DNA of 62,255 nucleotides, counting the filler, from Dimargaris cristalligena (Eukaryota): assembly GCA_003614675.1 (NCBI GenBank). It is 14 parts of 14 records of this genome, joined end to end, with 100 filler letters (N's around TTAATTAATTAA, not from the genome) between each part and the next. Parts side by side here need not be neighbours in the genome. Positions count along the whole stretch, not along the records: positions 44,713 to 48,951 come from ML003798.1; positions 49,052 to 53,397 come from ML003799.1; positions 53,498 to 57,830 come from ML003800.1; 11 more parts are not named here. One strand, given 5' to 3'. Below are positions 4,388 to 57,830 of this stretch, one piece after another. The first letter of the stretch is position 1, and the number at the start of each line of letters is the position of its first letter. The position numbers and the translations under genes are program-made. The notes under the pieces are model-generated. The model worked only from the letters and a program-made list of their open reading frames with translations, was not told where the DNA came from and searched no databases.

Positions 4388-4439
4388 ACATTAGAATAAG
4401 GGAGTGATGTAAAAGTTTTCCTTATTTATATCTTATTTC

Positions 4440-7725: not shown

Positions 7726-8075
7726 CAAGGCAGGTTCCTACTCCACAGCTTCTGTAAGTTTTTATTTGACTCATAAAAATTCACTTGATAATTAACACTC
7801 TTCATAGGAGGGAAGGGTCTCAATACCATATTGAATGTGGTTTGCCCCCCTCTCTACTTTCCCCAATCACTATTATCAGAATTTAAGACTGGCTGTTGTT
7901 GTGGCTGGCCTAAGAGGACCCTAATGGTATTCCTAATAGACCACATAAGTTATAGTTTACCTACGGGCTGATGGCCATAATCCTAAATACAATTGGACTC
8001 TACTTATATTATTAGCATCATTTTTTAACACATAATATTGAGACTTACCCCAGTTTCACAATTATTAGATTATAT

Positions 8076-8613: not shown

Positions 8614-8657
8614 TAAGTAACTAGTGAATTCCCACTTATTTGAAGAGGAATCATCAC

Positions 8658-8783
8658 TGTCGCCCGAGTTAACCTCTCTTAGTCCGTCAAGAGTCTCGGG
8701 GGTAGGCTTCTAACAGTAGGCGGGGCGTTGGACACGGCCAAGCGGGCTACTAGTGTTAGGGGGGGGTGACAGGACTAACCGAA
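8658..8783 (+). mobile_element. Young LTR-like element family C, 5' end, cut by contig end
   Basis: Begins TG; near-identical to 57573..57700 (TGTCGCCCGAGTT...GGCCAAGCGGGCTACTAGTGTTAGGGG). Confidence 0.75.
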
Positions 8784-17748: not shown

Positions 17749-17863
17749 GAGATAAGAGAGATTNNNNNNNNNNNNNNNNNNNNNNNNNNNNNNNNNNNNN
17801 NNNNNNNTTAATTAATTAANNNNNNNNNNNNNNNNNNNNNNNNNNNNNNNNNNNNNNNNNNNN

Positions 17864-22060: not shown

Positions 22061-22247
22061 TATAAAGAACTGAAATCAAATCCTTGAAAACTGAACTTTA
22101 TTTAAAAAATAGATAATAAAAAAGGGAAAGGTAATGATAGATTTGCTGTTCTAAGAGGTAGTAGCAAGGGGGAGTATTTATACTCAAAAGAGGAAGCCTA
22201 AATAAAAAGATAGATGAATAATAGAGAAAGGGAGAGAAGGTCCCAGA
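22061..22247 (-). mobile_element. LTR family A, 3' part (TATA, AATAAA, ...TTCTTTAYA end)
   Basis: Reverse complement matches 22348..22402, 31308..31411 and 35596..35680; contains GAGTATAAATAC and AATAAA on the minus strand. Confidence 0.75.
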
Positions 22248-22347: not shown

Positions 22348-22402
22348 ATCTATCTTTTCAAATAAAGTTCAGTTTTCAAGGATTTGATTTCAGTTCTTTA
22401 CA
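22348..22402 (+). mobile_element. LTR family A, 3' end
   Basis: AATAAAGTTCAGTTTTCAAGGATTTGATTTCAGTTCTTTACA, ending in CA. Confidence 0.75.
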
Positions 22403-22548
22403 ACCACCAACCCACTGATTGGTTTTTTCTGTCCATTGGCTATGTTTCACAGAACCACATGCCACCAGCCCACTAATTGGTTCCCTTTTTATTGGCCATA
22501 TTTCACATAACTACCAGCCCACCATCCTACTGATTGGTTTCTCTGTTC
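22403..22548 (+). repeat. About 58-bp tandem repeat x2.5 with ATTGG (CCAAT) boxes, probably the U3 region of another LTR
   Basis: Units start CCACCAnCCyACTrATTGGTT at about 22404, 22462 and 22519; TATAAATA follows at 22682. Confidence 0.55.
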
Positions 22549-31307: not shown

Positions 31308-31411
31308 CTGCCACCTCTTGGAACAGCAAGTCTATCATCACCTTTCCCTTCTTATCATCTATTTTTTTAAATAAAGTTCCGTTTTTAAGGATTTAAATTT
31401 AGTTCTTTACA
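31308..31411 (+). mobile_element. LTR family A, 3' end
   Basis: Same AATAAAGTTC...TTCTTTACA terminus as other family A copies. Confidence 0.75.
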
Positions 31412-34400
31412 ATGGGAACTCATTCACAATCTGATGGGTTGTAACCTATAATCTAACTGTAAATATAAGATGGAGAAGCTCACTTGGGACTCCAAAACTG
31501 AGTACCTATACCATTTTACACAAGTACTCACCCTTGGATAATAAGGTGGTATCAACTAAACTAAGATTCACCACTACCTCCTCCATATCCTTAAAGAATC
31601 TTAGTATAAAGACTTACTTTACAAAGATACACTGAGTGGTACAACCTGTATGGATCAGTCCTGTACCACCTAAAGTAAGAGTTATTTGAACTCTAATACA
31701 AAAGGAGCCACAACAACTCAAGACATGATTAATTCTGGCCAAATATATCTGCAGCCCTACAAAACTACTGTTCTCCAAGTACCCCCTAAAGGCAGGAAAC
31801 TTCTAACTGAGTAACAAACCCTACCCCCCAAAGTCCAACATGTGCTTTATCTTTGGTAATGTTGGCTACTTCACCTTACTGTATTCAAAGAACAAAAACC
31901 CTAAAGTTAATGAGGCTCACATAGAACTTGAAAAGGCACTAGCAGAATCTGAATTTCAGCCAACTGATAATAAACTATATGCCTTGGACTATTCCAACCT
32001 GGAGGATGCCACCATAGGTGCCGTTGAAGCTCCCCAAATTAGTGGACAATACCTCCTTAAGGTACTAGTTAATAGCTAACCCCAGGAGGCATACCTGGAT
32101 ACTGGTACCTGAAGGTGCCAAGGAAGTTCCCCCAGTTGGAACTGGCTATATCACCCTCAGAGATAAGAGCCATACCTGAGTGAACTGCTATGTGGAACTC
32201 CAAGTTACTGTGGGTACCCTGGTCATACCAGTAATTATAGCCATACTCCCCAAAGGAATTTTCCTCCTTGGGACTAATTGGGCTAAATTGGCCCAACTGG
32301 TCATTAATATTAAACACCAGGTCATAAGTCTGGGGTACCAGGAGACCCCCCTGTGGGTTCTCCAGCCCACTATTATTACACCTTAGGCCATAGTTCCCAT
32401 TAAGGTCCTGGCTAATGGACCTGTCCCTACTACCATATTTATCCACATAATCAGCAGTAGTCTAACATATACTATCCCTAGACTTGTCTAGTTCAAATAG
32501 CAAGATACATGGATTCTGGTGGGTAACCCTACTACTGAGCTCATTATTCTCATGCTAGAGACCTGGGTTAGTATAGTCACCACAGACCCTGATACTAGCA
32601 ATATGGATAACACACCTTGGAACTGACCTTACCAAAAGTGAAAGTCTTTCAATCTGCCAAGTTATCCAGGACCACAGGTTATTTACAACTAACCCAAAGA
32701 AACCTATGATCATGTACAGTATAACCCATTAGATCAACCTGCTGGATGTAACCCCAATCTGGAGCCAAGCCCACCAGACCCCCTGGCCCAAGAAAGTCAA
32801 ACTCCAGTAGGTTGCAGAGATACTTAAGAATGTAATTATCTAACCCTGCAAGAGTGCCTGGGCCAGCCCTATTACCCCCATCCTCAAGAAGGATGGAACA
32901 ACCCAGTTCTGTATTAATTTCCACAAACTTAACAAGGTCACCCACAAAGATACCTACCCTTTGCCCAGCATCAAAGAAGCCCTCAACCATTTAGTAATGG
33001 CCTCTTACTTCTCTATACTTAATCTAGTATTGGGATACTGGCAGATTCTGATAGAACCAGCTAGTGTGGAAAAGATAGTATTCACCACCAGTGACACCCT
33101 GTATAAATTCATAGTTAAGCTGTTTGGCCTGTGCAATACTATGGCCACCTTCCAATGACTCATAAATAAAGTACTACAGAAATACCTTAATATATGCTGC
33201 CTTATCTATCTGGACAATGTGATTATCTTTTTGCAGAATGCTGAGAGCCACTACAAAGACCTACAACTAGTCCTAGACACCCTCCACAAGCATAGGTTAC
33301 AGCTCAAATAAAGCAAATGCCTGTTCAGGGCTCAGAAAGTCCCCTATCTGGGCCACATTATTACCTGTGATGGTGTCCAGTCCAGCCCTGATAAAATCAT
33401 GACTATTGAAAACATGCCCATACCCACCACTGTTAAGGACATCCAGAGCTTCCTTAGCCTAGCCTTGTACTATTGATAGTTTATCCAGAAATTTGCAGTA
33501 TGGTCTACAGCCCTCTGTGGGCTCATCAAGAAGGATATCCCCTTCCTATGGACTGCCAAAGAACAGGCAGAGTTTGACAATCTCTGAAAATGCCTATCTG
33601 GGAACCTAATCCTATGATACCCCAACTTTGCTAAGATATTTATTATCCAAACCAATACCTTGAATACCAGTATAGGCACTATACTCACACAAGGGGAGGA
33701 AGGGTACAAACATATTGTTGCATATGCCAGTACACAGCTAGATCTGGCACAGAAGAACTACTCAGTTACTAAATGTGAGTGCCTGGCAATCCTATTTACC
33801 CTGAAAAAATTCTGACTATACCTGTATAGATAGTATTTTACTATCAAAATAGACCATGCACCACTGCAGTGGCTCTACTCCACCACCCCACACTCAGGTT
33901 GACTTGAATATTGGTACCTGACCCTGCAAGAATATGACTTTATAGTCCACCACTGTCCCAGCCAAGTCCACAGTAATGCTGATAGACTATCCCACCTAGC
34001 CACCCCCCCAAGTAGTAGACCTACAGGGTGAACCCCTGGTCAGCTGCCTCAACCTCAAAGCTGGTACCCCCATATTTGTCATCCAATGCCACCACCCACA
34101 GGCAGTCATACTAATACAGGCCACCCCTGGTTCTGCAGGTTATAACCTAGCATGTATCACCAAGTTTAACCTTACCCCCTACTAATGCACTAAAGTAGCC
34201 ACAGGCTGGGCCTTACAAATGGAACCCCTTATGGTAGCCCTTGTAAAAGAATGCAGTTCCCTTGGACTGTACAGCATTGCCATCCATGGCAGAGCTATTG
34301 ATGCTGATTTCTGGGGCAAAATCCAAGTACCAATGTACAACCTCATAGCTGAATTGCTCCAATTCCAACTAGGGGATCACATCACCCAACTAGTCTTCCA

Positions 34401-35595
34401 GTAATACAAGTCCCCCCTCCTTATGGAGACCACCACCCTGAGTGAAACAGAATGCAGCCCCTCTGGCTTTGGGTCCACCAATGTCTAGCCCACTATCCTG
34501 GCTGTCACTGTCCCCCTAGCCCAGATGCTCCAGGACTAATTAGCTAACCCCAATGTAAAGAGCCTGCATGACCACATAGAAGATTACATATTACACAAGT
34601 TCTGCAGAAAGAACTAAACCTTCATACTCAAAGACCACTGCTGTACCAACAAGGCCCTGGTGGACAGGACCACCTAGTCCTACCCAAGTCCCACTGAGCC
34701 ATGGCCATTGACACCACCCATTGCAGACCCAGTACCAGCTACCTTAGTGTAGAAATAGTCCTACACTGTTTCTGCCAAACTATATACTGGCCCTCCATAG
34801 ACAAGGTCATTAAGGAATACATGCACAGCTGCAAAACTTATCAGTACCACCAATAGGCCCTCCAACTGCCTACTCAACTGGTGACCCCCCTCACTGGTCC
34901 CCTGGACTACCTGGGTATCAATATCATTAGCCCCTTTAACATTATCCATAATGGTAACAAGTTTACCATTGTCACTGTAGACTACTTCACCCATTGGCCC
35001 TTTACATACACTGTCCCAAATATCACAGCCCAAGTAGTCATTCAGTTCCTTATCAAAGATGTAATCAGCATATATAGCTGTCCCTGGATCCTCATCTCTG
35101 ACTGCAGCAAGCAATTTACTGCTAGCATCCTCCAGCAGACCCTATGACTTTTGGGAGTAGATCAATATATAGCTATCCCATACCACCCCCAGAGTAATAG
35201 AGCTATAGAACACCTCAATGGTACCCTCAAGCACATAATCTCCAAATATTCTTTAGGTGATAACCCCCAATAAGACTAACACCTTACCCTGCACCTATTT
35301 GCCTACTGCATAGCCTACATCCATATTATTGCCAATACACCCTTTATTTAATGTATGGCCATGACCCACATATACCCATCAATGTTACCCTAAATGCCAA
35401 ACCTGATACTTTACAAGCCTCCACAGGCTCTACCTGTCAACAAGCTATGCAACTGACTCAGCAAAGCTTACCAATGGGTCTGCTATAAGCCAGGTCCTAA
35501 ACCCACTGACCCCATATAGTACTACATCAGAGACTGTATCCTAGTCTAGGTCCCCCATAGGCCCCTGTCCCTACAGGCTCCCTTCAAAGGCCCCA
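31412..35595 (+). mobile_element. Heavily decayed Ty3/gypsy retrotransposon: gag(CCHC)-PR-RT-RNaseH-dUTPase-IN
   Basis: Degenerate knuckle CFIFGNVGY (31843), YLDTG (about 32092), SAWASP..PILKKDG, YPLPSI, FGLCN.MATFQ, YLDN (about 33206), RNase H to NADRLS (about 33995), dUTPase about 34075..34485, integrase VDYFTHW/LISD/YHPQSN. Many stops. Confidence 0.92.
34075..34485 (+). pseudogene. Retrotransposon dUTPase domain between RNase H and integrase
   Basis: ATPGSAGYNL, ECSSLG, RAIDADFWG, GDHITQL, TECSPSGFGST: all five trimeric dUTPase motifs, altered by transitions. Confidence 0.88.
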
Positions 35596-35680
35596 TGTAA
35601 AGAACTGAAATCAAATTCTTGAAAACTGAACTTTATTTGAAAAGATAGATAATAAAAGGGAAAGGTGATGATAGACTTGC
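35596..35680 (-). mobile_element. LTR family A end, antisense to the gypsy element (nested insertion)
   Basis: TGTAAAGAACTGAAATC... is the reverse complement of the family A 3' end. Confidence 0.75.
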
Positions 35681-40249: not shown

Positions 40250-40683
40250 CCCTTAAAATGGCAAGTTACCTTCGAGATAAGTTTTTATTATTCAGAAGAA
40301 ATATCTATTTTAACTTCACCCAGTGTTTTACCCAGCATCAGCCAAGGACTTCAACTGGAAGTCAATTTTTTGTTTTTCTTAATTTTTTTATCTTATTTTT
40401 GGTATGTAGCCACCATGATTCCTCCAGTACCTAACTCCAATGACAGGAGTGTAGGACCATTTTGTGTGGAACATTTTGCACCATACCCCAGTTTGACCTC
40501 CAACAACAGCTCCAAGCCGATCCAACTAGCCAAAGGACTGTTTCCCGAGTTCTCCATGTTACATCCAGGCACTGGCCCCTCAAAACCAATGTCCAGTGAA
40601 CCTTCCAGTCCGGGAGGGAGCAGGGAATCTAACCCCAGCCCTAATCCCGAAATGGAAGTGCCTTAAATCACTGGCACCATACA
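40250..40683. repeat. LTR-like repeat family B, copy 2
   Basis: High identity to 4652..5093; ends ...CACCATACA. Confidence 0.8.
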
Positions 40684-41159
40684 TTCCAGGTTTCCAATGG
40701 TGCTAATTTATTCCAGAATGGGACCAGCTCATCCTAGACCTGTTAGTTGGTATAAATATCCCCCTTCTCTTGAAGTATTTTCTCCCAGGCTTCGTCTATC
40801 TAGATCATTGAATCATTAGCAGGGGCAAGGTTGGCAGTGGGATTAATTAGTAGGATAAATAATAGCAGACTTCAATGGTGACTCTATGGCTCAGACTACT
40901 GGAGTAAATATATTATGTAGCTGGTCACTGGGGATGAGGCTATTTAAGAGTGAATGGTGCTTTAAATGCCTTTACTTTTGGTTGCATATGGTTGATGTAC
41001 TGCCAGGGTCAGGACAATTTTCCTTTTCCATGAGACCAATTGGTTGTTATACTCTACCCCATGATGCCACACACTCCGGATATGTAGTTATGCCTTTGCT
41101 GCGAACAACACACATGGAGACAAGGGAGCAACATTGAAGTCTTCCATAAACTACATTTA

Positions 41160-41890
41160 AGAAATACCCCAATGGATCTGAGGCAACTTTATCTTCCATT
41201 TACTCATATTCTTCTTTTCATAACTTATATTCAAGGAATGCCCCAGCGGATCCGATGTGAATCTATTTTCCATTATTTTTCCACTTATCCTTTTCTTCCA
41301 ATTTTCCACAGTGTTCAAACTTGAAGACCCAACCAGTTTTTCCCTTTGTGGTTTTTATGGTTGTTCGTCCATCTGAGGATGATGTCCTGAAGTAGTAGTA
41401 TAGTTCCAAATTCATAAGTATTATTTTGCATATATATAGTCTCTCCAGTTGGCCCTTAAAATGGTAAGTTATCTTTGAGATAAGGTTTTATTATTCCGAA
41501 TAAATACCTATATTTTAACTTCACCCAGTATTTTACCCAGCATCAGTCAAGGACTTCAACCAAAAGTCAAATTTTCATTTTCTCAATTTCATTATCTTAT
41601 TTTTTCAGCACATAGCCACCGTGGCTCCTCCAGCACCCAACTCCAATGACGGGAGTGTAGGACCACTTCTCTTTGAACATTTTGCTCTGTATCCCAGTTC
41701 GACCTCCAAGCACAGTTCCTACCCAATCTGAATAACCAAGGGACCGTTTCCCGAGTTCTCCATGATTTGCCTAAGCACCTTGAGCCCTCCAAACCTGACG
41801 TCCAGTGACCCTACTGATCCTGGGGAGAGCAATGGGTCCAACCCCAGCCTTAGCCCCAGAAGGGAGGGGCCTCAAAACACTGGCCTAACA
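41160..41890. repeat. LTR-like repeat family B, copy 3 (diverged)
   Basis: Colinear with 4440..5093; ends ...GGCCTAACA. Confidence 0.75.
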
Positions 41891-42031
41891 GTCAGCCTCC
41901 ACTACCTTATATTTCTTAGAAGTATAGTTTCATGGAAATAAGACATGTTCTATCCAATTCTAACTTGCCAAGGGGTATTGTTAAATGGAACCCTTATATT
42001 TGTATTGGACCATCATCCATTAAATTAATGG

Positions 42032-42298
42032 CTATAGACTTACTTGTTCTTGCAAAGTGCATATTGCGAATTTACCGACCCAGATATGGTCAGGAGTGAG
42101 GTTTCTTAACATGGTCCAATCCAGCTGACTGAATATATCCAGAATTAATTCATTTGGAAGCTTTAGAACACCGGACAAGTCTGATGCGGGGCTAGTTGAC
42201 TCATGAGCATCATCAGTTCCCTCGAGTAAAGTTGCCTGGGTATTCCAAGCAAGAACTAAGCCGGTGGCAATTGCATACACGCCGATGGAGACTTTCAT
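42032..42298 (-). CDS. Signal peptide + F-box-like protein, first exon; downstream part interrupted by repeat B
   Basis: MKVSIGVYAIATGLVLAWNTQA signal-like leader, then VLKLPNELILDIFSQLDWTMLRNL (F-box consensus L..LP.EL...IF..L...L). CAA|GTAAGT donor just before the stop. Confidence 0.65.
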   Translation of the reverse strand: MKVSIGVYAIATGLVLAWNTQATLLEGTDDAHESTSPASDLSGVLKLPNELILDIFSQLDWTMLRNLTPDHIWVGKFAICTLQEQVSL

Positions 42299-44359
42299 GT
42301 TGGTCGATTAGCGGTCGGGAAGAGGTGGTGGGATGCTTAGCATACTTTAGGTCACCCAAAATAGGAACACATTGTGTAATATAGATGATCATCCAAGAAT
42401 TGGGGAACTAAAGAGGATAAATAGGGTCAAGATTAATGGTTAAACAGTGAATGAGAGTGAGTAGGAGATATCAAAGTGTTTAATGCAAAATTGCTTAGCA
42501 ACACTGATAGTATTTGTATATTGCCTTTCAAAGGACTACTTGGGGGAGGGGGAATGGTGCTCCACCATTTTTACCAACCCTGTAGAAGAGAGGGTCTCCC
42601 CTCACTTAGCACCCATTAGGGCGGCTACTTTCAAAAAATAAATAAAATAGAAATAGAGTGCGGCTCACTGTAATGTAGTGCTGTGCTGCCAATTTGTGTG
42701 CTTGCATTTATCTATTGCACTTAATTAGCTACTAGCTGGCTAGGTGACCTTGTTGTTCTTTTCGGACCCGCCTATTGTGATATGCAGTATGGGTTGCCAA
42801 TTGGTTTGTCCTTCTGTGAATGTTGGTATGTGCAGGAGGATTAAATTTCCACTGTTATCCTTGGAGTTTGTACACCGTGTTTTCCCTTTCCCTTATCCTC
42901 CCCCTCCCTCTCGCCCCTTTCCTTTCCTTTTGTACTGAAAGGGGAATTAATGAGATCATGTAAGTATAACTAGATGCTCCAACAGGGACACATTGATGAA
43001 AACCCAGTAGTATTGGTGCATTGGTGGTACAGGAAACTGAGATGGTTGAGCTTGTAGCATTCATTGGAACATCAAAGCCAAGCTATACACAAATGCCATT
43101 CACAGACCTTCCTCACGGATTATTTTTTTCATCTGGCTATATAACAAAAACCCTGTTTGATGAAACAGGGAGGGGGGTTGGTAAAGATACTGTAATGGTT
43201 TGGGTCGAGTATGACCTATGGGTTAACTGATTTTCCAAAAGGAGTAAGGATTGACAAAATAACAAGGTGCCGAGTTGGGCAAAGAAAGCTTCTAAAGAGT
43301 TATTTATTGATTATAAAATCGAAACTTAAGGAGTTGAGATTATACTATGTCCTTTTGTTATATACTATTCGGTTGGTTTCCTTGCTGGCTTAGGCAGCTA
43401 CTGCTCACTACTTGCCCGGTGGGGGCGGATATAGGGGGAGGAGTGAGCTGGACGATTTCATTAGTCGCATGCTCTAATTGCTCTATAGTTGGGTGATCCG
43501 CCTTGCCTGGCGGTTGCAATACATCCACCACCTATAGCGCCATTTGCACTCCAAACAAAGTCACCGATAGAGCTGAATATTTTTCTCAACAACATGAGTC
43601 CTAATATAGACAATGGTAATGGTTCGATAATTGGCTAACCGTGCTAACCTACATCCTGGTAATGCAGGCCTTGGTCAATTGGGAACAATTTGTCCACCAA
43701 TGGTGTGATAGCCAACAGCAATATGTTGTATACACATTTACCATAGTGGCAGTGTATGAATATCCCTTATATAGTAGAGAACAAGATCACTTTGCTACAT
43801 TATTGTTAATAGATGCCATCGACATTTGTTATTTTATTGGTGATACTTATTTCACACAATGGACAAGTCCACGGTTTATAATAACCGAAAGTTGTCATGG
43901 ACTTTAAAGAAACTCAACAGATAATAATTTTGATAGTAAAAATATAATAAACTAATTAGGGTTGGCTGGTAGGAAGGAATAAAAGGAGAAAGTAATATTT
44001 TTACGGAAGATTGTTTCTTTCCCTTCTATTAACATACTGAGTTTTAAAACTGAAAAAACCCCAACAACAGCAGTAACATAGCCACCCCAAGCCCTTTACA
44101 TCTTCATGTAATAATTAAATCAAATTATCAGTTTCCCACTCAGTCTTCCTGGTACATCCAATTTAGAAAGACGATGTAAATAGCTAAGTAATACAAGCCT
44201 CCCTTGATTCAGGAGAGGGCTGGGGCTGCGAGGTTTGATAGTTAATGAACACAGATAGTCTACTTCGGCTGGATGGTGCCATGCTGATCATTTGTGCTGA
44301 GGATGGTCTTGAAGGTCATTTAAATTTTCTTTTCTAATAAGCCACTCGACCAATAAATA

Positions 44360-44497
44360 TGGGTGAAATGCGGCCCAGCCGTATAAGGTTTTAAATGATA
44401 CATGTATGGGGTAATATATGGGAGATTTATTTTCAACCAGTAATATTCACTTCATCCAACAGATTTTTCGTTATACAGCTTAGTTGAACCTCTCCCA
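44360..44497. mobile_element. MITE, 138 bp, full copy with TA target duplication
   Basis: TA|TGGGTGAAATGCGGCCCAGCCGTATAA ... TTATACAGCTTAGTTGAACCTCTCCCA|TA. Confidence 0.85.
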
Positions 44498-44557
44498 TAT
44501 GTTTCCAAAATTAATTTGATTCTATTAATGATAAACCCGAATAAAAACAAAAATTCT

Positions 44558-44612
44558 TAGCGATGCTACGTTTCGATCGTAGGACCTCAGGGTTATGAGC
44601 CCTGCGCGCTTC
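44558..44612 (-). tRNA. Initiator tRNA-Met (CAT), 5' part lost at contig end
   Basis: Minus strand GAAGCGCGCAGGGCTCATAACCCTGAGGTCCTACGATCGAAACGTAGCATCGCTA: GGG/CCC anticodon stem, CAT anticodon, initiator-type GATCGAAAC T-loop, T-rich Pol III terminator downstream. Confidence 0.95.
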
Positions 44613-48105: not shown

Positions 48106-51100
48106 GGCGGTGGTGGTGGATGCGTATAAACCCAAAAGTGAATAGTGGCGGAAATGGGGATTGAAACAAGGGACGACTGCAACAGACCAATCGAAATGAG
48201 TGGACGGTGGTCGGGAGAATAATAAAGAAGGACCGCGTCGAGGAAATGGTAAAATGGACAATGGAAATAAAGGGCTAGGAAGGCTCAGGGTCAATAAGTG
48301 CGCGGATTTCAGGCGGAGCAGGGCCACGGCCGATAGGGACATGCAATATGTAGAGACCAGACCAAGCACCAAAATAAAATAAAAGGAAACTGAAGTAAAT
48401 TGGCGGTGAATGGGGTTTTTTAAAATTATTTTTTTAATAAAAAAACACACACGCTGCTAAGACGATGAGTGGATTGGTGTATATATAGGTTATATTTCGC
48501 TCTAGGCTGGCCTGAAAGGATGCGTGGACTATACACAGGGGCCCGGCAAATGGAACATTCGGCCAGTGGTGGTTGTAGTAGAGGAGGGAACTATAGATAC
48601 TGTGGTCGGGGGCCGACTTTACTTTAGAGAAGAAAAAAAACCGGGGATTTGGGTAACCAGACGAGGCGAAGTGCTTGGTTGGCTAAAGGTAACTTGGTTA
48701 AAAAGAACTGAGCAGGAAGAAATGCAGAGGATCTCCCCCGCCCTTGACTTAGCGAATAGAGAAGGGAGGAGACGAGAATAGAAAAGGTGGCTTCTTACTA
48801 CTCATGTAGAATGATTCCTTCCATTAGGCGACAATACACCACTGCAGTGTGGATCGTTTAACCACACTCCACCGGCGCCGGGAGTCTCTAGTATATTGTT
48901 CGCGAATGGCCGTCATCCGCGTGGGTGCGACCAATAACCACCAGGGATTCCNNNNNNNNNNNNNNNNNNNNNNNNNNNNNNNNNNNNNNNNNNNNTTAAT
49001 TAATTAANNNNNNNNNNNNNNNNNNNNNNNNNNNNNNNNNNNNNNNNNNNNAGATCTTCGGGTGCAAATGGCTAATAACAAGGTAGGAAGAAAGTCATCC
49101 CAATTTCGTCAAGGTCCAATGTTTTGTCGACGTATACCTCCCTTGATTTCAGCATGGCAACATTCAACCTGCCCATTAGTGGCAGGATGATAAGCTGATG
49201 TTAAGAGATGGTGGATATTCAAGGACTGTAAATAATCCTGGAAATTATTGTCAGTGAATTGAGCACCACGGTCAGTTAGAATTTGACATGGTAATCCAAA
49301 CACAGGAATTAATTCTTCTCTAAGGAACGCAATGGCCGCTTCAGCAGTAATCTCTGGAATCGCCCAAGCCAGTGGGAATCCAGTGGCATGATCAATCGCG
49401 GTGACCAGATAGTGATTATTTTGGTGAGATCTCACCAAGGGACCAACAAAATCCATGCCCCACATATCCAGGGGTTGTAAGACAGGCGCTAATGGTGTAG
49501 GTTCAACTCATGTAATGGGATAGGACCGGCGATCAATTTGACATCGAGGACATTCACGAACAAAGCGCCGAATAGCACTTAATAATTGGGACCACCAAAC
49601 TCGAGTCTTCATCCGGTAATAGGTGGCCTGATAACCCTCATGACCAAAATTATCATGATATTGGTGTAACTGGCGTTGCCGATCAGCAGGAGGAATGTAA
49701 GGAACTTGATCATTATCAATTAATCGGCAAAGTGAGTTAGTATGGTCATCCCAGCGGAAATTAACCTGTTCCTGCTCCAGTAGTTGTCGGACTTGAGGAG
49801 TAAGTTCAGTAGGTAATGATTCATGGTGTAGTAGAGAACGCATATGATCAATCCAGTTAGCGGGTAGATCGTCAATGGTAAGAGACAATTGCTCAGTCAC
49901 CATATTCAAAGTGGGACTAGGCTCGTGGCAGCGGGAAAGGGCATCCGCTACCAACTGCTGGGTCCCCGGAAGATATTCAATGTTAGGATCAAATTCAAGG
50001 AGCATCTCCAACCAATGATGTAAACGTAAAGGGAGTTTAGCTGTGTGTTTAAGGAACTGTAACCCCTTATGGTCTGAATGGACAGTAAATTTTTGGCCAT
50101 GAATAAAATGACGCCAAGTGGTTAGGGTATGTATAATGGCATACAGTTCAAGTTCATGAGCCGCATAACGGGATTCCGGACTAGTTAATTTTTTGGACTC
50201 ATAGGCAATGGGCTGTAAACCCAAACCCTGGTCCTGCATTAACACAGCCCCCAGTGCAGTAGCCGAGGCATCAGTGAAAATTTCAAAGGGCTGAGAAAAG
50301 TTAGGGTAGATTAGCACTGGGGTACAAGTAAGTTGACCACGAAGGGTCTCAAAAGCCACTTGACATTCTGTGGTCCAAGTTAGTTCTTTAGGCTTATTAC
50401 GTAGAGCACTGGTTAAAGGAGCCACAGTGTCTGAATAATGGCTAATAAATCGCCGATAGTAATTAGTTAAACCTAAAAAGGATTGTAAGGCCTTAATGCT
50501 ACTAGGTGTAGGAAAATCTTGCATAGCTTGAATTTTACGAGGGTCAACACTAACACCACTAGAAGAAATAATATGGCCTAAATATTCTAAAGATGATTGC
50601 CCAAATACACATTTCGATAGATTAGCATATAAGTGATGTTTTTCCAACAGTTGTAAGACTTGCCGTAAATGATCCTGATGACTCTCCTCAGTTGGGCTAT
50701 AAATAAGGATATCATCCAGATAAACCATCGCGAATTTGTCCAAGAAGGGATGTAGAATCCCATTCATAAGGGTTTGAAAAGTCGCCAGCACATTGGTGAG
50801 CCCAAAAGGCATAACCAAGAATTCGAACTGCCCATATCGAGTATTTAGGGCTGTCTTGGGAACATCAGGAGGATGAATGCGGATTTAGTGATAGCCTGAT
50901 TTTAGATCAATTTTGGAAAAGAATTTGGATCCCGCCAGACGGGCAAAAGTTTCATCCACATGTGGCAGTGGGTACCGGTTCTTAATGGTCTTAGTATTTA
51001 ATGCTCGATAGTCAATACACATACGACAAGTCCCATCTTTTTTAGGGACAAAGATAACAGGCGCCCCCCAAGGTGAGGATCCCGGTTGAATCCACCCCTT

Positions 51101-51829
51101 TTGTAAATAATCGTCCAGCTGGGTCCGCAATTCCTGTAAGTCAGCTTGAGTTAATTTGTAAGGATGCCGGTAGATTGGTACAGAGTCACCAGTATCAATT
51201 CGATGGTCAATAGGACGTGGTGGTGGTAAACCCGGGGGCAATGGACCCAAAATAGTGCCACAAAAAGGCTGAAGGATGGCTTCATAGTTAGCTGGAATAG
51301 CCGGGGAAGCCTCATGGGGTGGTTGCACCATGACCATAAACGTAGGCTCAGTTTCCATTTCATTAATAACTTGATCAATGGAAACTAGCTGGGCTGATTG
51401 GCAGTGACTCTCAGGGCTAATACTTGGGCGTCCCTGAATACTAAGATTACAATGAGGTAATTTCAGTTGATAGTCTTGCCAATGGATAGTGGGTTGGTGC
51501 TCCATAAGCCATGGTTGGCCTAGGATAAGATCATATGGGGCTTGTTCAAGGACTAAGGCACTAATGGGGCCATGCCAAGGAGGTAAACAAAGTGGGCTGT
51601 GAATAAAATGAGTTAATTCCTGGCATTGGAGATTACCAAGACTAACAATATAAGGTTGTTTACAAGGCAGTAATTCAAGACCCGCTTGTTCAGCAGTAGC
51701 CTTAGTGATAAAATTATTAGAAGCACCAGTATCAACCATAGCTGTAACACAATGGCCCTGAACCTGACCATCCATAAGAAATAATGGCCGGCCCTTAGGC
51801 CCATCATAACTTCCTAAATCAATGGTATA

Positions 51830-52230
51830 ATTACTGGAACCAAAGCCTTGGTCCTGGTGCTGGGTGGATGGTAAAGATTCTACCAGTTTAAACTGGCAAC
51901 TCATATGGGGTAATAAAACTCCTTGGACTAAGCGATCCCCTTGATAAATGGCCAAATCATGGTCAGTATAATTAGAAAGAACCGCGTAAATAGGACCCCG
52001 GTAGTCAGGGTCAATAACTCTGGCATCCAAGGTATATCCAGTTATGGCAGCACTGGAACGAAGGGCTAGTTGGATATAATATCCTGGTGGGGGCATTACA
52101 CAAATACCAGTATTAATTTTTTCACATTGGCCGGGCTTTAAAATCTTGTTCTCCATACTAGACAAATCAAATGCTACCGCCTGTTCAGACCCCAGAAATA
52201 AATCAGCAACCCAAGGGAAAAGTTTTTTAT
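51830..52230 (-). CDS. Retrotransposon dUTPase domain upstream of protease
   Basis: [38 protein letters not shown] correspond to dUTPase motifs 1-5. Confidence 0.9.
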
Positions 52231-52323
52231 AAGTAAGTGTTAAAGATGGGTGTGAAGAGGGGGAACTAGTGGTATTGATTGAAGTAGCAAGGGCAGAATG
52301 GCCCAAGGATAATGAAAATGGAA

Positions 52324-52369
52324 AACCTTGGTCGGGCCCGGCTAAGCCTCCAAGGTTGGGGAGTTTTTT
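52324..52369 (-). promoter_or_regulatory. -1 programmed ribosomal frameshift signal (A AAA AAC + stem-loop)
   Basis: Gag frame ACA AAA AAC; 5 nt later AACCTTGG-(18 nt)-CCAAGGTT hairpin; the -1 frame is open into dUTPase-pol. Confidence 0.8.
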
Positions 52370-55300
52370 GTCTGGCCCTGATCCAGAGAGTTGGCTTGAG
52401 ACTCAGTTGATGAGTTACGTTGTCTATATTTAGGACACTTGCGAGCCACATGCCCCTTCTGACGACAGGCAAAACAAGATCTGCTAGCTCGGAGGTAGTT
52501 ACGCTCTTCATTGGTCAAGGGTAACAAAGCGTCCAATTCCATGGGCCCAGGACCACTACCCCCTCCATATCCACAATTTCCCCGAGGTCCTCGGTGATTA
52601 CGAATTCCCATTCCGGGCCCGTCAGCATACACAGGGTGGACTTGGCCAGCCAAATTAATGGCTTGACGTAAATTAGTTGGGTATGTAGTAGCTACCGCAA
52701 CCTGAGTATGGGCCGGCAATTTCTCCAGGAATAAAGGGACTACTTCAGCCTGAGACATGTCCGGGATTTGATCAGCCAGTTTCGAAAACTCACTGGTAAA
52801 ACGCTCAATGTTACCTCGGAACTGGAGCTGTTTCAACTTAGATCGCAAGCGGCGGGTAATGGAGGGGTCATAAAATGCCTCCATAATGGAGTCCTGGAAG
52901 TCCTCCCATTGAGTAAAGTAATGACCGCTGCTCTCCTCATCATTGAACCAGCGTAAGGCACGGTGATCCAAGGAGCGGGACACATGCTCAACTTGTTTTG
53001 CCTCAGTAGGAAACAGGCCCTTCGACTGGTTTCGGGCCTTTTCCAACCATGTCTGGACATTTTCTTAGATACCCCCGGTAAAAGCATCCACACGCTCTGG
53101 TTTGGGGCGGCCATAGGTTTCCAAAATCTCACCCCTACCAGTATCTGTCATAGCTGATTGCACCTGAGTCGCAGTGGTACCCGCTTGATGAGCAAGGGTA
53201 CCCGCCTGGGTCGCAGTAGTGCCTGCCTGTCTCGCAGTGGCACTCGCCTGGGCAGCAATAGTTCCCACCTGGGTGGCAGTACTTCCCGCCAATTCCGCGG
53301 CTTGACCAGCTCATACAGCTGTTTCCCCCGCGTCCTCCGCTCGTTTGCCCGCCTTTCGGGCCGTCGAATCCGCCTTCTGGGCCATCTGGCGGGCCACNNN
53401 NNNNNNNNNNNNNNNNNNNNNNNNNNNNNNNNNNNNNNNNNTTAATTAATTAANNNNNNNNNNNNNNNNNNNNNNNNNNNNNNNNNNNNNNNNNNNNTGA
53501 TTAATAAAGAAATACTGTGGTTAACTAAGTAGTCTCAGGTCCTACCACAACAGCTATTAGTCATGCTAAATGAATGGCATAGGAGGAACAGCAGATAGCA
53601 AGCCTTCAGGGCCTAAAGCTCTTATTAAACGGGATATGTTTTACCCCTAGTAAGTATGGCTCAAGCAGCCAATCTGTTGAACCTTATCCACAAGCTTACC
53701 AATGGCCAATCTTACTATTTGGCGCTTATTAGCTGACCATACATATACCGAGGTGACAATCACTCTACCATAGTTTGGTCGCTCTATCAGCTATACCACT
53801 GCTATTTGTCGGACTCTATCCATCCAGCCCATCTTGGACTTCAACCTTTTTTCCTAGTCATTCGCAATTCACCCAGTGCCGTGATTGCTCTTAAAATATC
53901 CAACAATAAGACATGAAAGTGCACTGGATTCCCCTTAGGCGAAGGGCATTACCCACCACTTCTCGGCCACTAGATTAGTGCCCTTGCCTCAACCGCTGAG
54001 ATACCCAACCGTGGCCCCTCTCGCTCAGGTTCCACCTCTTCACAATTGACACTTTAGTTCGTTTCACAGACAAAGTGTCAACCAGAATTTTGTGCTATTG
54101 TATAGCCTGATATATATATATAATGTTATAATTACATATAGAAGTGTTTGGCATATGGTCAAAGAAGGGTTACTATGCTTTTACTTCAGCCTCGACTTAT
54201 ATCAATATTGCTCTATTGTATAGGTGGAAATGGGGCATAGCGATTGGGTTGGGTGGGGGTACTTTCTAGATTATTGCGCAAGGGCCCGGGGTGGAATTAT
54301 TTATAGAAAATTAATATGGTTTTTAATATCCCTGTGTAATCTCAGGTATTTTTATTGAATACCAAACTGACAAATGGCCGACTGCAACTATCAATCAAAG
54401 GGTTGAAAATAGACTAGAGCGCAATAAATCAATGCGGGGATTGAAAGGGCTGAAATACTTGAAGGAAATCGAACAGGGCATGGCGTGGGTTAAATACCTT
54501 TTAAATTGTAAAGTGACCCTACTAATCTCAGTTTGAAGCATAACACATTGAAGGAAATTTCCGGCCGGGACACTCTAGCTATACAGATACACACATCATA
54601 ATTTAGGGACATTAGCTATACCCAAATGTTTCCCCTCCCCGAGTGCTTCCGGTAACGGTGCCAACCCACAACTCAGCCACAAGACCCCCCACCCCAAATA
54701 ATAATAATAATAATAATAATTAAAGAGTCTCATTATCATTGATTTCCAATGATTGCAAGACCTGCTTAATGCGCCCCTCCATCCCCAAAAATATATATAC
54801 AAGAGTTGCAAGTTTAAGACATCGAATACCCCCTTCATTAATTAACTAAGTTCGCTTACATTGGGGGATTAAATGCTTAAACTGAACTCAGTCCCTCAAA
54901 CCTTCGGATATGACTCGAGGTGTGCGCTACATGACTCAGTTAACATAGTATGGCTACATAATTATGGAAAGACAACCTTTATCTAGACTATTCATATAAA
55001 TCACCGAGTATATTGAATCAGATGTATGTGGGGTCTAACTTAACCGGTTTGCCATTAGGGCACATGGTGGCCGATGGGGTTTTAAGCCGAATGATCGAGG
55101 GCGATCAAACATCGTGGTTGTTAGAGCAGAGATGGCCCAAATGCGATTAGCACGATTCACCGGAGTATCCTCCAAAAAACCAAGCCGGACGCATATCTTT
55201 CCCTCGTGTGGCGCAGAAATCAAATTATATAGGCAGAACCAGATGAGATTATCCGTAGTATCACCCCGCCCTTCCGTCGGCCATAAGTAGGGATCACCAG

Positions 55301-55850
55301 CCCCCATATTGATCGTGTTGAACATCGATCACCCGATACTACAAAGAGTCAAGCCCAATACAACCGGCGATTCGTAAGACAGTTAACCTTGTCGAAACTG
55401 TCTTTTAATACTGCCTGTACATTCGTTGGTAGTTGATAGTTGGGTTAGGAAGCAGAACCCAAGGAATATAGGTAATAGTCAATATAGTTATCGCAACGAT
55501 TTACCCTTGCATGAGACACTCCCTTGGCCCATCGAATCCAAGCATATTAGACCATTTGGAATAACTATTTCCTCGTCGCCTATGCCATCAAACGTACGAA
55601 AGTTAGGGAAGCCCACGCAGAGAATGAGTAACCTGCGCTCATATTCTAGTGAATATATAAACCAGTCCACATATTCTCTCGATTTTTACAGTATCTAGCT
55701 TTACATCATAGTCATTCCATCATTCGCCTGACCTTTCTTTCCTCACCCCCTTTACTAATACAAATCGAATAGGTCAATTATTTACCCTTGCAGTACTACA
55801 TTTCTCCCAACACTACTCAGTCTTATTACCGTAGAGCCACCTTCTCAACC

Positions 55851-56261
55851 ATGAAGTGGCTCATCTCCCTCCTTCTGACCACAGCTCTTGTTGCCACTAT
55901 GGGAATGACTGCCGCAACAATTCCTGAAACCCACCGTGCTGTCGCGCCGATGGCCAAGGGCGCACTTGGTATGCTTCACACTAAGCTCCTGACTGCGCCG
56001 CAAGATTTGTTACACCGTCGGGGATATCACAACTACACCCCTGAGCATCGTCGTCGCCTGGCCCTCTCTAAAAAACCTTGCGAGTCTCTGGTCAAGCGGA
56101 CACCTATTCCAATGCCTGTCCCAAAATCATCCGGAGATAACTCTGGTGATTCGGGCCAAAATAAAGTGCGAGCTACTGGCTATAACAATCTCCATATATT
56201 TACTCCGATACTAATTGGGAGCTCAGATTCCAAATATCTCAATTTTTCTTTAGCTTTCTGA
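55851..56261 (+). CDS. Small secreted basic prepro-peptide; 3' end may be spliced
   Basis: MKWLISLLLTTALVATMGMTAA leader, ACC ATG context, TATATAAA at about 55654; dibasic sites RR, RRR, KK, KR. Possible intron from GTGCGA at 56166. Confidence 0.65.
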   Translation: MKWLISLLLTTALVATMGMTAATIPETHRAVAPMAKGALGMLHTKLLTAPQDLLHRRGYHNYTPEHRRRLALSKKPCESLVKRTPIPMPVPKSSGDNSGDSGQNKVRATGYNNLHIFTPILIGSSDSKYLNFSLAF

Positions 56262-57199
56262 GTTACAGTACTGGCCCATCCATTCGTCAAAGATATATTT
56301 GCAAGGCCCTAATTACCCAATCTTACTACGGTTTGCCACTTGCATAGAGTTTTCCTATTCTCTTGTTTATGTATTAAATATATATATATGAGGTTACCAA
56401 GCTAGTGCAATCTCTTTTCAAGCATACCTTATCAATAAATACAACCTGTCATATTTATTATATAGAGTGTGTAGTCTACTGGTCCAATATTAATGAGGTA
56501 TCTTGGTTATTGACACATTACTTTAGTGCTCAAGCTATAAGTAAAAACCTTGCCCTAATATTTGTACTAGAGGTTGCTTCCAACCCAGTTCATCTATACA
56601 GTTTTTTATTTCTATATTAAAGCATACCTGAAGGTGGCCTGATTACTTTGCAGGGCCTAATTAGTTGAGTGCTCACTCAGAGAAGGTGACTGTTGTACTG
56701 CCATAGGCAGGAATGGGTTTTCTGTTCCATAAGTATAAATAGTTATTAAGCCACCAACACACTACCCCAGTTCTCAAACCCCCATAAGCTTACTACTATG
56801 AGAAGTTTTGCTTGATAGCACAGTCACCACTACCATGATCTTCTCCTATTTTAGTTATATTTTGTTTCATTTCTTGTTGTGCTTCATTTAACTTCACAAA
56901 TGCTTAATACTACCCTACAACAGTAGGTATGTTAGCCCTCCTAATCCAACTTGATCTAGACTTAATGATCACTAACCCTTATTAGGCCTTATAGCACCAT
57001 ATTAACCCTCCCATAGGCACCCCTGGTACTCTGGGTTTATCATTTAGTATATGACCCTTCTCCTTCTGGCCCCAACACTTTGCACAAAGCACTCAACCTG
57101 CTGATCCAAAGACTCTTCCAGTTCCCGTGAGAGTCTTCCAGATATGAAGCCATCTGGTTGGACTATTTATCTACCTATACCTTAGTCTTAGTAGCATTT

Positions 57200-57512
57200 C
57201 CCTTGGGACCTTCCTCTGGAGCTGTCCCCACATATATATAACCAGGCCCCACTGGGACCAGTTCAATTCCTTAGCTTATTCATACCCCCCAGTTTACCTC
57301 AATAAACTCTATATATACTCACCCCCTTATACTAACTAATAAGTGTGCCTGCTGTACTTCCCTTGCATATACCTATACTTATCCTTTATTAGTTAGTACT
57401 GTGCCCCCATCCTAATGCTAGTAGCCCACTTGGCCAAGTCTAAGCCCCACCCACTATTAAAAGCCTATCCTCAGGACTCTTGATGGACTAAGGGTGGTTA
57501 ACCTGGGTGATA
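57200..57512 (-). mobile_element. Decayed LTR-like family C copy, inverted relative to 57573..57830
   Basis: Reverse complement starts TATCACCCAGGTTAACCACCCTTAGTCCATCAAGAG and continues to match TTTATTGAGGTAAAC...AATAAGCTAAGG. Left boundary uncertain. Confidence 0.75.
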
Positions 57513-57572
57513 AGGTGCAAGTAAGGAATTGTGATCATTAAATAGAAGAGTACCATATTGATATCTTCCAAG

Positions 57573-57830
57573 TGTCGCCCGAGTTCACCACTCTTAGTCC
57601 GTCAAGAGTCTCAGGGATAGGCTTCTAACGGTAGGCGGGGCGTTGGACATGGCCAAGCGGGCTACTAGTGTTAGGGGCAGTGACAAGACTAACCGAATAA
57701 AGCAAGCATAGGACGTAGGCGAGGTCCGTGCACTAGATGCACACTTACTGGTCAGTACTAGGGGGTGAGCGTATATAGAGTTTATTGAGGTAAACTACGG
57801 GGGTAAGAATAAGCTAAGGTACTAACCGGT
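57573..57830 (+). mobile_element. Young LTR-like family C copy, cut by contig end
   Basis: TG start, CpG-intact, near-identical to 8658..8783. Confidence 0.78.

Follow-up and report, generated by a model that had tools for sequence, protein, structure and literature searches.

Two Ty3/gypsy families in one Dimargaris cristalligena assembly probably carry dUTPase at different places of the polyprotein

Introduction

Few accessory enzymes have been acquired repeatedly by retroelements, and dUTPase is one of them. The locus described here, from the Dimargaris cristalligena assembly GCA_003614675.1, raises the question of whether two different Ty3/gypsy families of one genome carry the domain at two different places of the polyprotein and, if so, whether it was captured once or twice. 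The window, i.e., the whole stretch of 62,255 nucleotides that was analyzed, is made up of 14 assembly pieces of ∼4.4 kb each, joined by spacers of 44 N + TTAATTAATTAA + 44 N. As separate pieces were joined, the two elements, A (49052-53397, minus strand) and B (31308-35680, plus strand), come from different contigs, and each is truncated before an LTR is reached. No direct repeat of at least 25 nt spanning the piece was found on the A piece or the B piece. LTR, PBS, and PPT were not seen because the two pieces stop within the coding region or right next to it, and the absence of LTRs from such pieces does not imply an absence from the elements. A previous sequence-only reading had placed a dUTPase-bearing gypsy element at 49052..53397; the element is present there, its start and end being merely those of the piece and not element boundaries.

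Analysis of the other pieces with Pfam in six frames revealed no match in the low-GC, CpG-poor pieces at 4388-8783, 40250-44612, and 53498-57830. The window also carries an ATR-like ORF, for which an Atlas search yielded matches from mixed taxa, and an isocitrate lyase ORF, the best PDB matches of the latter being long eukaryotic-type ICL chains (1dqu first), which we take to be fungal.

Domain organization of element A

Pfam analysis of element A showed, on the minus strand, the order gag, a −1 frame change, and dUTPase-protease-RT-RNase H-integrase, with the following features:

53065..53397, minus strand: region upstream of gag, in the gag frame, with an in-frame stop (53065-53067) before gag; reaches the piece end
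52342..53064, minus strand: gag with capsid-like domain and CCHC zinc knuckle (Ty3_capsid E 3.7e-13, Retrotrans_gag E 1.5e-9, zf-CCHC E 2.4e-4)
52363..52369, minus strand: candidate −1 ribosomal frameshift heptamer A AAA AAC (gag-frame codons ACA AAA AAC), inside the gag/pol overlap
52324..52357, minus strand: predicted hairpin, 6 nt past the heptamer (MFE −23.2 kcal/mol, 83-nt stretch)
51833..52195, minus strand: dUTPase, first domain of the pol frame (PF00692 E 2.2e-20, residues 70-190 of ORF 50885-52402)
51506..51772, minus strand: retropepsin-type aspartyl protease (gag-asp_proteas E 1e-9, residues 211-299 of ORF 50885-52402)
50567..51049, minus strand: reverse transcriptase (Pfam); TAA at 50885-50887 interrupts the GYH*I motif
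49991..50377, minus strand: RNase H (RT_RNaseH_2 E 1.7e-33, RT_RNaseH E 5.2e-33)
49184..49696, minus strand: integrase zinc-binding domain and catalytic core (Pfam); TGA at 49508-49510; core truncated by the piece end

The placement of dUTPase between gag and protease agrees with the earlier assignment (51830-52230). The pol of A lies in the −1 frame relative to gag, the two overlapping by 61 nt, and the heptamer within this overlap corresponds to what we take to be the gag-pro slip site of MMTV. By itself, A AAA AAC is no rarer than chance, as 17 copies were found window-wide against 12 expected; likewise, the hairpin does not exceed shuffled sequence in stability (z-score −1.13) and is hence not significant by itself. 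Judged from sequence, the layout of A appears betaretrovirus-like in having dUTPase N-terminal to PR, the −1 frame, and the heptamer in the overlap. A −1 ribosomal frameshift at the heptamer would give access to a pol frame opening with dUTPase and continuing with protease, RT, RNase H, and integrase, i.e., a betaretrovirus-like order.

The A copy contains three in-frame stops. Its ORF 50885-52402 comprises 505 open codons (dUTPase, protease, and the start of RT), ORF 49508-50884 covers RT, RNase H, and Integrase_H2C2, and ORF 49109-49507 the rve core. Contigs from all four runs with the same organism label cover the A piece, and in each of the four, position 50887 is G, not A, which gives a sense codon; the stop within RT is, hence, not shared. 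Contigs of other runs extend past 53395, and the architecture was recovered in other assemblies on a single 2446-nt contig covering PR, dUTPase, and gag. A search of sequencing runs gave five DNA runs in two studies, with no RNA run among the matches listed. Family A is probably young and multicopy.

Domain organization and decay of element B

Element B, read on the plus strand with stops passed through as X, showed the Pfam order RT-RNase H-dUTPase-integrase:

32880..33362, plus strand: reverse transcriptase, decayed (RVT_1 E 3.5e-15, frame 1)
33549..33935, plus strand: RNase H, decayed (RT_RNaseH E about 1e-26 (1.1e-26), frame 1)
34108..34479, plus strand: dUTPase, between RNase H and integrase (E 1.1e-14, frame 2); three stops, key motif residues replaced
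34683..35189, plus strand: integrase zinc-binding domain and core, decayed (Integrase_H2C2 E 4.6e-5, rve E 4e-7, frame 1)
31326..31416, unstranded: short repeat, left end of the B piece, 88% over 91 nt to the copy at 35592-35680
35592..35680, unstranded: inverted copy of the same repeat, right end of the B piece

The earlier reading had located this dUTPase at 34075-34485, between RNase H and integrase, and Pfam confirmed that position. PR was undetected, and no Gag domains were found with Pfam at E up to 0.01. The B copy is a dead relic from which CpG is almost gone: the observed/expected ratio is 0.01, and CpG counts from RT to the downstream end gave zero in all five sub-regions, dUTPase included. 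There are 15 in-frame stops among the 712 codons counted and at least two frame changes. The short repeat has further copies at 22055-22159 and 22348-22403 and sits at other piece ends too. As candidate LTRs, the two end copies were ruled out since they are mutually inverted.

Lineages of the two elements

The Pol of both elements follows the Ty3/gypsy order, with PR, RT, RNase H, IN_H2C2, and rve in A and RT, RNase H, IN_H2C2, and rve in B, and A also has a Ty3/gypsy Gag (capsid-like domain plus CCHC knuckle). Their RT-RNase H regions share 34% identity, and grouping them as a single clade was rejected (AU test p 0.028), in accordance with the two different gypsy lineages proposed earlier. 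Element A was placed in a starred 8-row clade (SH-aLRT 98) together with elements without dUTPase, named for Calcarisporiella and Mucorales. Element B was placed in the other starred clade, where the free tree paired it, on a long branch, with P0278, which also lacks dUTPase.

Gypsy polyproteins were the best RT relatives of both, A having 7866 such proteins at E<=0.001 (E values as low as 1.5e-164 among the matches listed) and B having 63. PF00692 was present in 0/120 of the relatives of A among the matches listed. Among the 63 found for B, no dUTPase lay between RNase H and integrase, and two proteins had a weak one upstream of RT. A metagenome scan with the 505-aa ORF of A returned no relative. 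These counts are in line with the earlier view that dUTPase is uncommon in such elements, but its occurrence at multiple positions in fungal gypsy elements has already been published, as the portion of PMC2864245 cited here describes.

Five metagenome gypsy elements (L019, L044, L049, L051, and L057) were found to have the order RT-RNase H-dUTPase-integrase within a single open frame. In L051, a 1217-aa open ORF contains RVT_1, RNase H, dUTPase (E 2.8e-37), IN_H2C2, and rve, and L044 and L057 are similar. The five belong to the same major RT clade as B and show 35-38% identity to it in RT and 26-30% in dUTPase. The free RT-RNase H tree set B apart from them, and a clade uniting B with them was not rejected (AU p 0.31 for RT-RNase H, 0.38 for dUTPase). 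Hence, the arrangement of B is not unique, as metagenome contigs hold open gypsy polyproteins with the same order, and B is most simply regarded as a decayed element that belongs to, or lies near, a gypsy group with an intact RNase H-dUTPase-integrase order.

Identity and likely function of the dUTPase domains

In a PDB search, the dUTPases of A and B both matched solved trimeric dUTPases, with 8hrv_A as the best match (E 5e-16 and 6e-12, respectively). Their PF00692 scores (73.2 bits for A, 54.7 bits for B) lie above the Pfam cut-off of 22, and their scores with NCBIfam TIGR00576 (dut), 88.3 and 67.6, lie below its cut-off of 102.55. It is, on the whole, likely that this one assembly contains two distinct Ty3/gypsy families with a trimeric-type dUTPase at different polyprotein places. 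By analogy with retroviral dUTPases, the enzyme would probably hydrolyze dUTP at the site of reverse transcription and thereby lower the uracil content of the cDNA.

Alternatively, the domains could be relics without enzymatic use, or non-catalytic, and there would be no selection against uracil in cDNA; we consider this unlikely. Motif residues were taken from alignments to solved dUTPases. The motifs of A (AVAFDL, LRSS, IDPDYRG, GDRLVQ, and HQDQGFGSS) show Ala in place of glycine in motif I and His in motif V, where 9/10 other aligned rows have Arg; those of B (SAGYNL, ECSS, IDADFWG, GDHITQ, and CSPSGFGST) have lost the key Asp and Arg. The changes in A, the scores under the dut cut-off, and the death of the B copy speak for relic domains. 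However, A has canonical motifs II-IV in a frame that stays open for 505 codons, and P0015, the sister dUTPase of A, has Arg at the motif V position. Moreover, the dUTPases of the metagenome elements retain all five motifs, and pairs of them gave dN/dS values of 0.06, 0.08, and 0.22, from which TE-borne dUTPases appear to evolve under constraint. The sequence-only reading had suggested strong selection on the retroelements of this genome to keep uracil out of cDNA; the two copies lend it no support, B being dead and A lacking the motif V arginine.

Number of captures

The dUTPases of A and B are 25% identical to each other, less than their identity to many stand-alone dUTPases (46% for A and 35-41% for B). 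A dUTPase tree of 152 rows was poorly resolved, with 11/149 branches starred, and the work was, therefore, continued with smaller trees of 43 and 56 rows. The dUTPase of A paired with P0015 (46% identical), with support of 97/81, 98/85, and 99/82 in three trees, and a starred 4-row set contained A without B. None of the four free trees paired A with B, yet the AU tests did not reject an A+B clade, with p 0.66 and 0.53 when B was unmasked and p 0.056 and 0.187 when its CpG-decay-prone codons were masked. Hence, the trees do not establish the two independent captures inferred in the sequence-only reading.

A single capture, after which the dUTPase was passed between families or moved within pol by recombination of co-packaged RNAs, would make the two domains sisters. 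Besides the AU tests, in which the tree constrained to A+B with unmasked B was at least as good as the free one, it is favored by the grouping of most TE-borne dUTPases, from differing positions and even from a copia element, in one weakly supported set (89/81), which suggests inter-element transfer. On the other side stand the free trees, the supported sister and starred set of A, and the low A-B identity; furthermore, the unmasked B dUTPase has a branch of 4 changes per column, so that a pull to another long branch is expected. A single capture thus appears rather improbable, and the two positions would instead reflect two separate insertions into pol, in two lineages, from one or two gene sources.

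In an exhaustive phmmer search with the A dUTPase, no relative exceeded 48% identity apart from one protein of 120 aa that is identical to the window, so no donor can be named. The nearest dUTPases were P0015, P0013, P0028, P0034, and P0070, and a word-index search directed at long proteins that contain a dUTPase like that of A yielded one match, a copia-type polyprotein.

That the B dUTPase is foreign to its family, whether nested by chance between RNase H and integrase or placed there by a chimeric assembly, is highly improbable: in the one decayed copy seen, it lies in another frame than RNase H and integrase, its GC (0.49) is somewhat above that of the neighboring stretches (0.41-0.46), and the piece is bounded by an inverted repeat found at other piece ends, but the domain is on the same strand, fills a linker to IN_H2C2 of 225 codons (∼100 in A), has lost CpG as completely as the rest of B, and has the same order in open ORFs of the metagenome elements.

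Comparison with known systems

Separate insertions in two gypsy families, the preferred reading, could possibly be taken further, to a proposal that we put forward tentatively and rate somewhat below an even chance. B and the five metagenome elements would constitute an undescribed RNase H-dUTPase-integrase gypsy group, while A would be a separate, recent acquisition in a Mucoromycota-type lineage in which every known relative lacks the domain, recreating the betaretroviral module of gag, −1 frameshift, and dUTPase-protease down to A AAA AAC; both layouts would have arisen in one small genome by convergence. If true, this would add two cases, a gypsy element with a lentivirus/ERV-L-like order and one with a betaretrovirus-like frameshifted dUTPase-protease module, and both would favor a general pressure on cytoplasmic reverse transcription against uracil.

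The multi-position pattern itself is not new for fungal retrotransposons. Novikova and Blinov are said to have described, in 2008, dUTPase-bearing gypsy elements in Phanerochaete chrysosporium. For Postia placenta, the sections of Novikova et al. (2010; PMC2864245) cited here describe several Ty3/gypsy families in one genome (PosPlaTy3-3, -4, and -5) with dUTPase at the Pol N-terminus, at the Pol C-terminus, or in the PR-RT interval, and the acquisitions are proposed there to have been independent. Repeated acquisition at differing positions in one fungal genome is, therefore, already published, and the present elements open no new question in this respect. The Pol N-terminal position is common to A and one of these families, whereas the RNase H-dUTPase-integrase order of B is absent from the positions given in those sections (PMC2864245). 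Both fungi are basidiomycetes, whereas the RT clade of A groups with Mucoromycota elements. In other LTR retrotransposons with dUTPase in Pol, namely, Tmt1 (Tuber), Juno, Vesta, and TelKA (bdelloid rotifers), and giant gypsy elements of planarians, the domain lies between PR and RT according to the passages cited (PMC5408684, PMC6431247), unlike in A and B. The PR-dUTPase-RT order was also found in P0031, P0140, and L059.

Among retroviruses, betaretroviruses (MMTV, MPMV, and HERV-K) have dUTPase N-terminal to protease, and non-primate lentiviruses (FIV and EIAV) and ERV-L have it between RNase H and integrase or downstream of them, as given in the cited part of the GyDB paper (PMC2238898). 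The betaretrovirus-like order noted earlier for A matches these descriptions, and so does the domain order noted for B, although in its decayed copy the dUTPase lies out of frame with RNase H and integrase. Element A shares with betaretroviruses a zinc-knuckle Gag followed by a −1 frame with dUTPase-protease, and the Atlas look-alikes of this dUTPase-PR part were dUTPase+RVP clusters named for HERV-K (score 0.94). It differs from them in its gypsy RT, RNase H, and integrase, in a protease of the gag-asp_proteas/RVP_2 type, in having dUTPase, PR, and RT in a single frame, and in that no env was seen. In the PDB ranking for the A dUTPase, the retroviral 1f7d (E 1.3e-9) came below cellular and other viral dUTPases, led by 8hrv; the resemblance to betaretroviruses is, hence, one of layout and not of descent. 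Similarly, B is itself a gypsy element that shares the domain order of FIV, EIAV, and ERV-L, and its dUTPase is matched better by 8hrv than by those of FIV/EIAV (1f7d, E 1.5e-7).

Organization of the Window

The window comprises 14 pieces of 4,239 to 4,396 bases each and is not one chromosomal stretch; its 62,255 bases include 13 spacers, each made of two 44-N runs (26 runs in all) on either side of the 12 letters TTAATTAATTAA. As the window is a chain of assembly pieces, adjacency across the spacers carries no meaning. Positions 49052 and 53397 are both ends of a single piece, that of element A (a gypsy retrotransposon on the minus strand), and element B, a decayed gypsy retrotransposon on the plus strand, occupies the whole of another piece (31308–35680). 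Being separated by spacers, the two elements are therefore located on separate contigs of one assembly. The remaining pieces harbor housekeeping genes of eukaryotes whose exons are long and open, namely, UTP25, an MFS transporter, DCP1, aconitase, UTP6, TTI1, isocitrate lyase, topoisomerase I, an ATR-like kinase, and the C-terminal part of methylmalonyl-CoA mutase. A fungal host is plausible in view of the isocitrate lyase, whose nearest PDB chains are fungal, and of the RT clade of element A. The mutase part, with a B12-binding domain (16829–17761, minus strand), is on the same contig as eukaryotic DCP1 (13381–15315); B12-dependent enzymes are not known from Dikarya, so that an early-diverging fungus, or else another eukaryote, may be the host. 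Three pieces that are low in GC and poor in CpG have repeats in common at 77–92% identity (4425–5091, 40250–40681, and 41217–41884; also 8075–8783 and 57321–57766), which look like an unclassified repeat family, and six-frame translation of these pieces gave no Pfam match.

Domain Architecture and Decay of the Two Elements

Pfam analysis located a dUTPase domain between gag and protease in element A and between RNase H and integrase in element B, the layouts that the sequence-only reading had described.

Element A
52342–53064, minus strand: gag ORF with Ty3_capsid, Retrotrans_gag, and a CCHC knuckle (Pfam)
50885–52402, minus strand: ORF with aspartyl protease and the beginning of RT (Pfam)
51833–52195, minus strand: dUTPase, within the preceding ORF (Pfam E 2.2e-20)
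49508–50884, minus strand: ORF with the remaining RT, RNase H, and integrase zinc domain (Pfam)
49109–49507, minus strand: ORF with the integrase core, cut by the piece end (Pfam)
Element B
34108–34479, plus strand, frame 2: dUTPase, between RNase H and integrase (E 1.1e-14)
Plus strand, frame 1: RT, RNase H, integrase zinc domain, and integrase core, in a translation with X at stops

Three in-frame stops interrupt the element A copy: one stop belongs to the gag frame, and the other two are a TAA at 50885–50887 and a TGA at 49508–49510. Its pol is in the −1 frame of gag with an overlap of 61 nt, in which the heptamer A AAA AAC (gag codons ACA AAA AAC) is placed in the X XXY YYZ register 24 nt 5′ of the gag stop. 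A hairpin of −23.2 kcal/mol is predicted 6 nt downstream, shuffled sequences folding almost equally well (z −1.13), and the heptamer occurs 17 times in the window vs. 12 expected. Its position and frame make it a candidate −1 frameshift site.

Element B is dead: stops were counted nine times in RT–RNase H (376 codons), three times in dUTPase (141 codons), and three times in integrase (195 codons); gag, protease, and LTR were not found in its piece of 4,373 bases. RNase H and the zinc domain are 225 codons apart, as compared to ∼100 in element A, because the dUTPase domain sits between them. The observed/expected CpG ratio was 0.01 for this piece (2 CpG in 4,373 bases) as against 0.79–1.06 for the gene pieces and 0.55 for element A. 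Such near-total CpG loss points to CpG-directed mutation acting on repeats in this organism, and the composition would fit a decay process that targets CpG, whether methylation-driven or RIP-like. The ends of the piece are inverted copies of a ∼90-nt repeat present at other piece ends too; with copies of about 55–105 nt at 31313–31416, 35590–35680, 22055–22159, and 22348–22403, this repeat may mark boundaries of repeats at which contigs were broken during assembly, or may be an inverted-repeat element of short length.

Identity of the dUTPase Domains

Solved trimeric dUTPases were matched at E up to 1e-5 by both domains (47 distinct chains for dUTPase A and 30 for dUTPase B). The best chain was 8hrv_A in both cases, with the retroviral dUTPases 1f7d, 1dut, 1duc, and 2d4l ranking lower. 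Motifs I to IV of dUTPase A can be aligned to those of solved enzymes; motif V retains GFGSS but contains His in place of the Arg found in 9 of the 10 other aligned sequences, including the nearest relative P0015 (a 112-aa fragment, 46% identical). The motifs of dUTPase B read SAGYNL, ECSS, IDADFWG, and GDHITQ, with other residues at the positions that align to the catalytic Asp and Arg in solved dUTPases. Both domains score below the NCBIfam cut-off for dut. The best-scoring non-self matches of dUTPase A (P0004–P0010 and P0012; 374–564 aa) contain two or three tandem dUTPase domains (single-chain pseudo-trimers).

Element A in Sequencing Runs

Among the sampled words of element A, 63–85% were present in five runs from two studies under a single organism label; the runs listed included none of RNA, which has no bearing on expression. 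The window may itself derive from one of these runs, so that the replication is not fully independent. Contigs of 4/4 runs covered all 30 bins of the element A piece. A single contig of 2,446 nt, which differs from element A at 11 positions, bridges protease, dUTPase, and gag, and contigs of 1,121 and 855 nt also cover the dUTPase. At least two contig variants, differing mostly by transitions, were found at the same place in RT–RNase H (0–1 vs. 27–30 differences per ∼310 nt); therefore, the family of element A is multicopy. Position 50887 is G in contigs of all four runs and A in the window, and with G the TAA within GYH*I becomes a sense codon.

Relatedness of the Elements and Distribution of dUTPase

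Elements A and B share 34% identity in RT–RNase H, 26% in integrase, and 25% in dUTPase. In the RT–RNase H tree (42 rows), element A was placed in a starred eight-row clade (SH-aLRT 98) with dUTPase-less elements, named in their sources for Calcarisporiella, Absidia, Rhizopus, and Lichtheimia, and element B in the other starred clade, of 19 rows. Constraining A and B together was 49.6 log-likelihood units worse and was rejected (p-AU 0.028), which supports the two being different Ty3/gypsy lineages.

The domain is also rare among the RT relatives of both elements. PF00692 was absent from the precomputed domains of the 120 best listed RT–RNase H–integrase relatives of element A, and a custom profile built from 150 dUTPase domains matched none of them; 2 of the 63 relatives of element B (P0275 and P0279) showed, upstream of RT, a stretch weakly resembling dUTPase, and none had dUTPase between RNase H and integrase, these counts being lower bounds because the protein collection rarely includes transposon ORFs of poorly annotated genomes. 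The closest intact RT relative of element B, P0273, has a stretch of 370 residues that separates RNase H from the integrase zinc domain and matches nothing in Pfam; a profile built from dUTPase domains did not identify this stretch as dUTPase, and a further insert, so far unrecognised, may occupy this position. A copia-type polyprotein from a public metagenome (P0002; 1,864 aa, RVT_2) contains dUTPase between integrase and RT; hence, dUTPase capture is not limited to gypsy elements.

Metagenomic Elements With the Order of Element B

Scanning metagenomes with patterns derived from the alignment of dUTPase A and P0015 gave 392 relatives in 592 matched stretches, and none of the 80 loci kept was >40% identical to dUTPase A. 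According to tblastn with the domains of element A, 13 of the 80 are retroelements. The order RT–RNase H–dUTPase–integrase was present in five loci (L019, L044, L049, L051, and L057); L038 showed dUTPase–integrase, six loci (L011, L013, L037, L040, L058, and L075) had dUTPase upstream of RT, and L059 was protease–dUTPase–RT. The L051 open frame of 1,217 aa contains RVT_1, RNase H, dUTPase (E 2.8e-37), zinc domain, and core by Pfam, and open frames were also found by Pfam in L044 (938 aa) and L057 (1,188 aa). The dUTPases of the metagenome elements keep all five motifs. The dN/dS of the domain was 0.06, 0.22, and 0.08 (dS saturated in the last) in three pairs with usable divergence, and 0.63, on 10 differences, in a fourth, close pair.

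The five loci formed a 100%-supported RT group within the major clade of element B, adjoining P0275 and P0279. Element B is 35–38% identical to them in RT and 26–30% in dUTPase, and holding it with them was not rejected (RT–RNase H, 10.9 units, p 0.31; dUTPase, 3.8 units, p 0.38). On the simplest reading, element B could be a decayed copy that belongs to, or lies close to, a gypsy group with the RNase H–dUTPase–integrase order.

Origin of the Two dUTPase Domains

An exhaustive search of 1.84 billion representatives with dUTPase A returned 1,019 proteins with E ≤ 1e-10, and the only one above 48% identity was a 120-aa protein identical to the window, so no donor could be named. The domain paired with P0015 in three trees (97/81, 98/85, and 99/82); in two of the three, both were in a starred four-row set without B (98/80; 98/82), and with B masked the next starred set around them had eight rows (95/87). 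Most TE-borne dUTPases, of various positions and including a copia-type protein, fell in one weakly supported set (89/81).

Separate RT and dUTPase trees had been suggested as a check, and in none of the four free trees did dUTPase B join A; B was never in a starred set. Its unmasked branch was 4.15 changes per column, and the tree holding A and B together was equal to or better than the free one (AU p 0.66 and 0.53). When X was placed at the 52 of 141 dUTPase B codons possibly produced by CpG decay, the branch was 2.25 and the held tree 18.3 units worse (p 0.056), or 17.4 units worse (p 0.187) with 13 added TE-borne domains. The data thus lean towards dUTPases A and B not being sisters, sisterhood not being rejected. 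Two independent captures had been proposed: two insertion events, at two places in pol and in two lineages, are supported, but AU tests do not reject the two domains as sisters (p 0.056 to 0.66), and they may derive from one source or from several. The observation was correct and its interpretation only partly supported.

Possible Role and Comparison With Known Elements

Gag-Pol of family A would arise when ribosomes slip into the −1 frame at A AAA AAC, and the protease would free the dUTPase, which would assemble into the usual trimer and could reduce dUTP in the particle or cytoplasm, the site of cDNA synthesis. A dUTP-lowering role is described for retroviral dUTPases in work cited in PMC2864245. 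Element B may represent a later stage, in which a copy was silenced and its CpGs were lost by transitions.

Full-text searches, in a collection with few subscription journals, found no report of the RNase H–dUTPase–integrase order in a non-retroviral LTR retrotransposon. Retroviral dUTPase positions are given by the GyDB paper (PMC2238898), dUTPase is among the enriched transposon-related Pfam families in an Entomophthora muscae preprint, and the PR–RT position is reported for fungi as well as for rotifers and planarians (Rodriguez et al., 2017, PMC5408684; Arkhipova and Yushenova, 2019, PMC6431247). The main idea is already in print: according to Novikova et al. (2010, PMC2864245), dUTPase occupies varying Pol positions in Postia placenta, i.e., the Pol N-terminus in PosPlaTy3-3, the C-terminus in PosPlaTy3-4, and between PR and RT in PosPlaTy3-5; Phanerochaete chrysosporium and Tuber melanosporum had already been known to contain dUTPase-bearing elements, and acquisition was proposed to be seemingly independent and from different sources.
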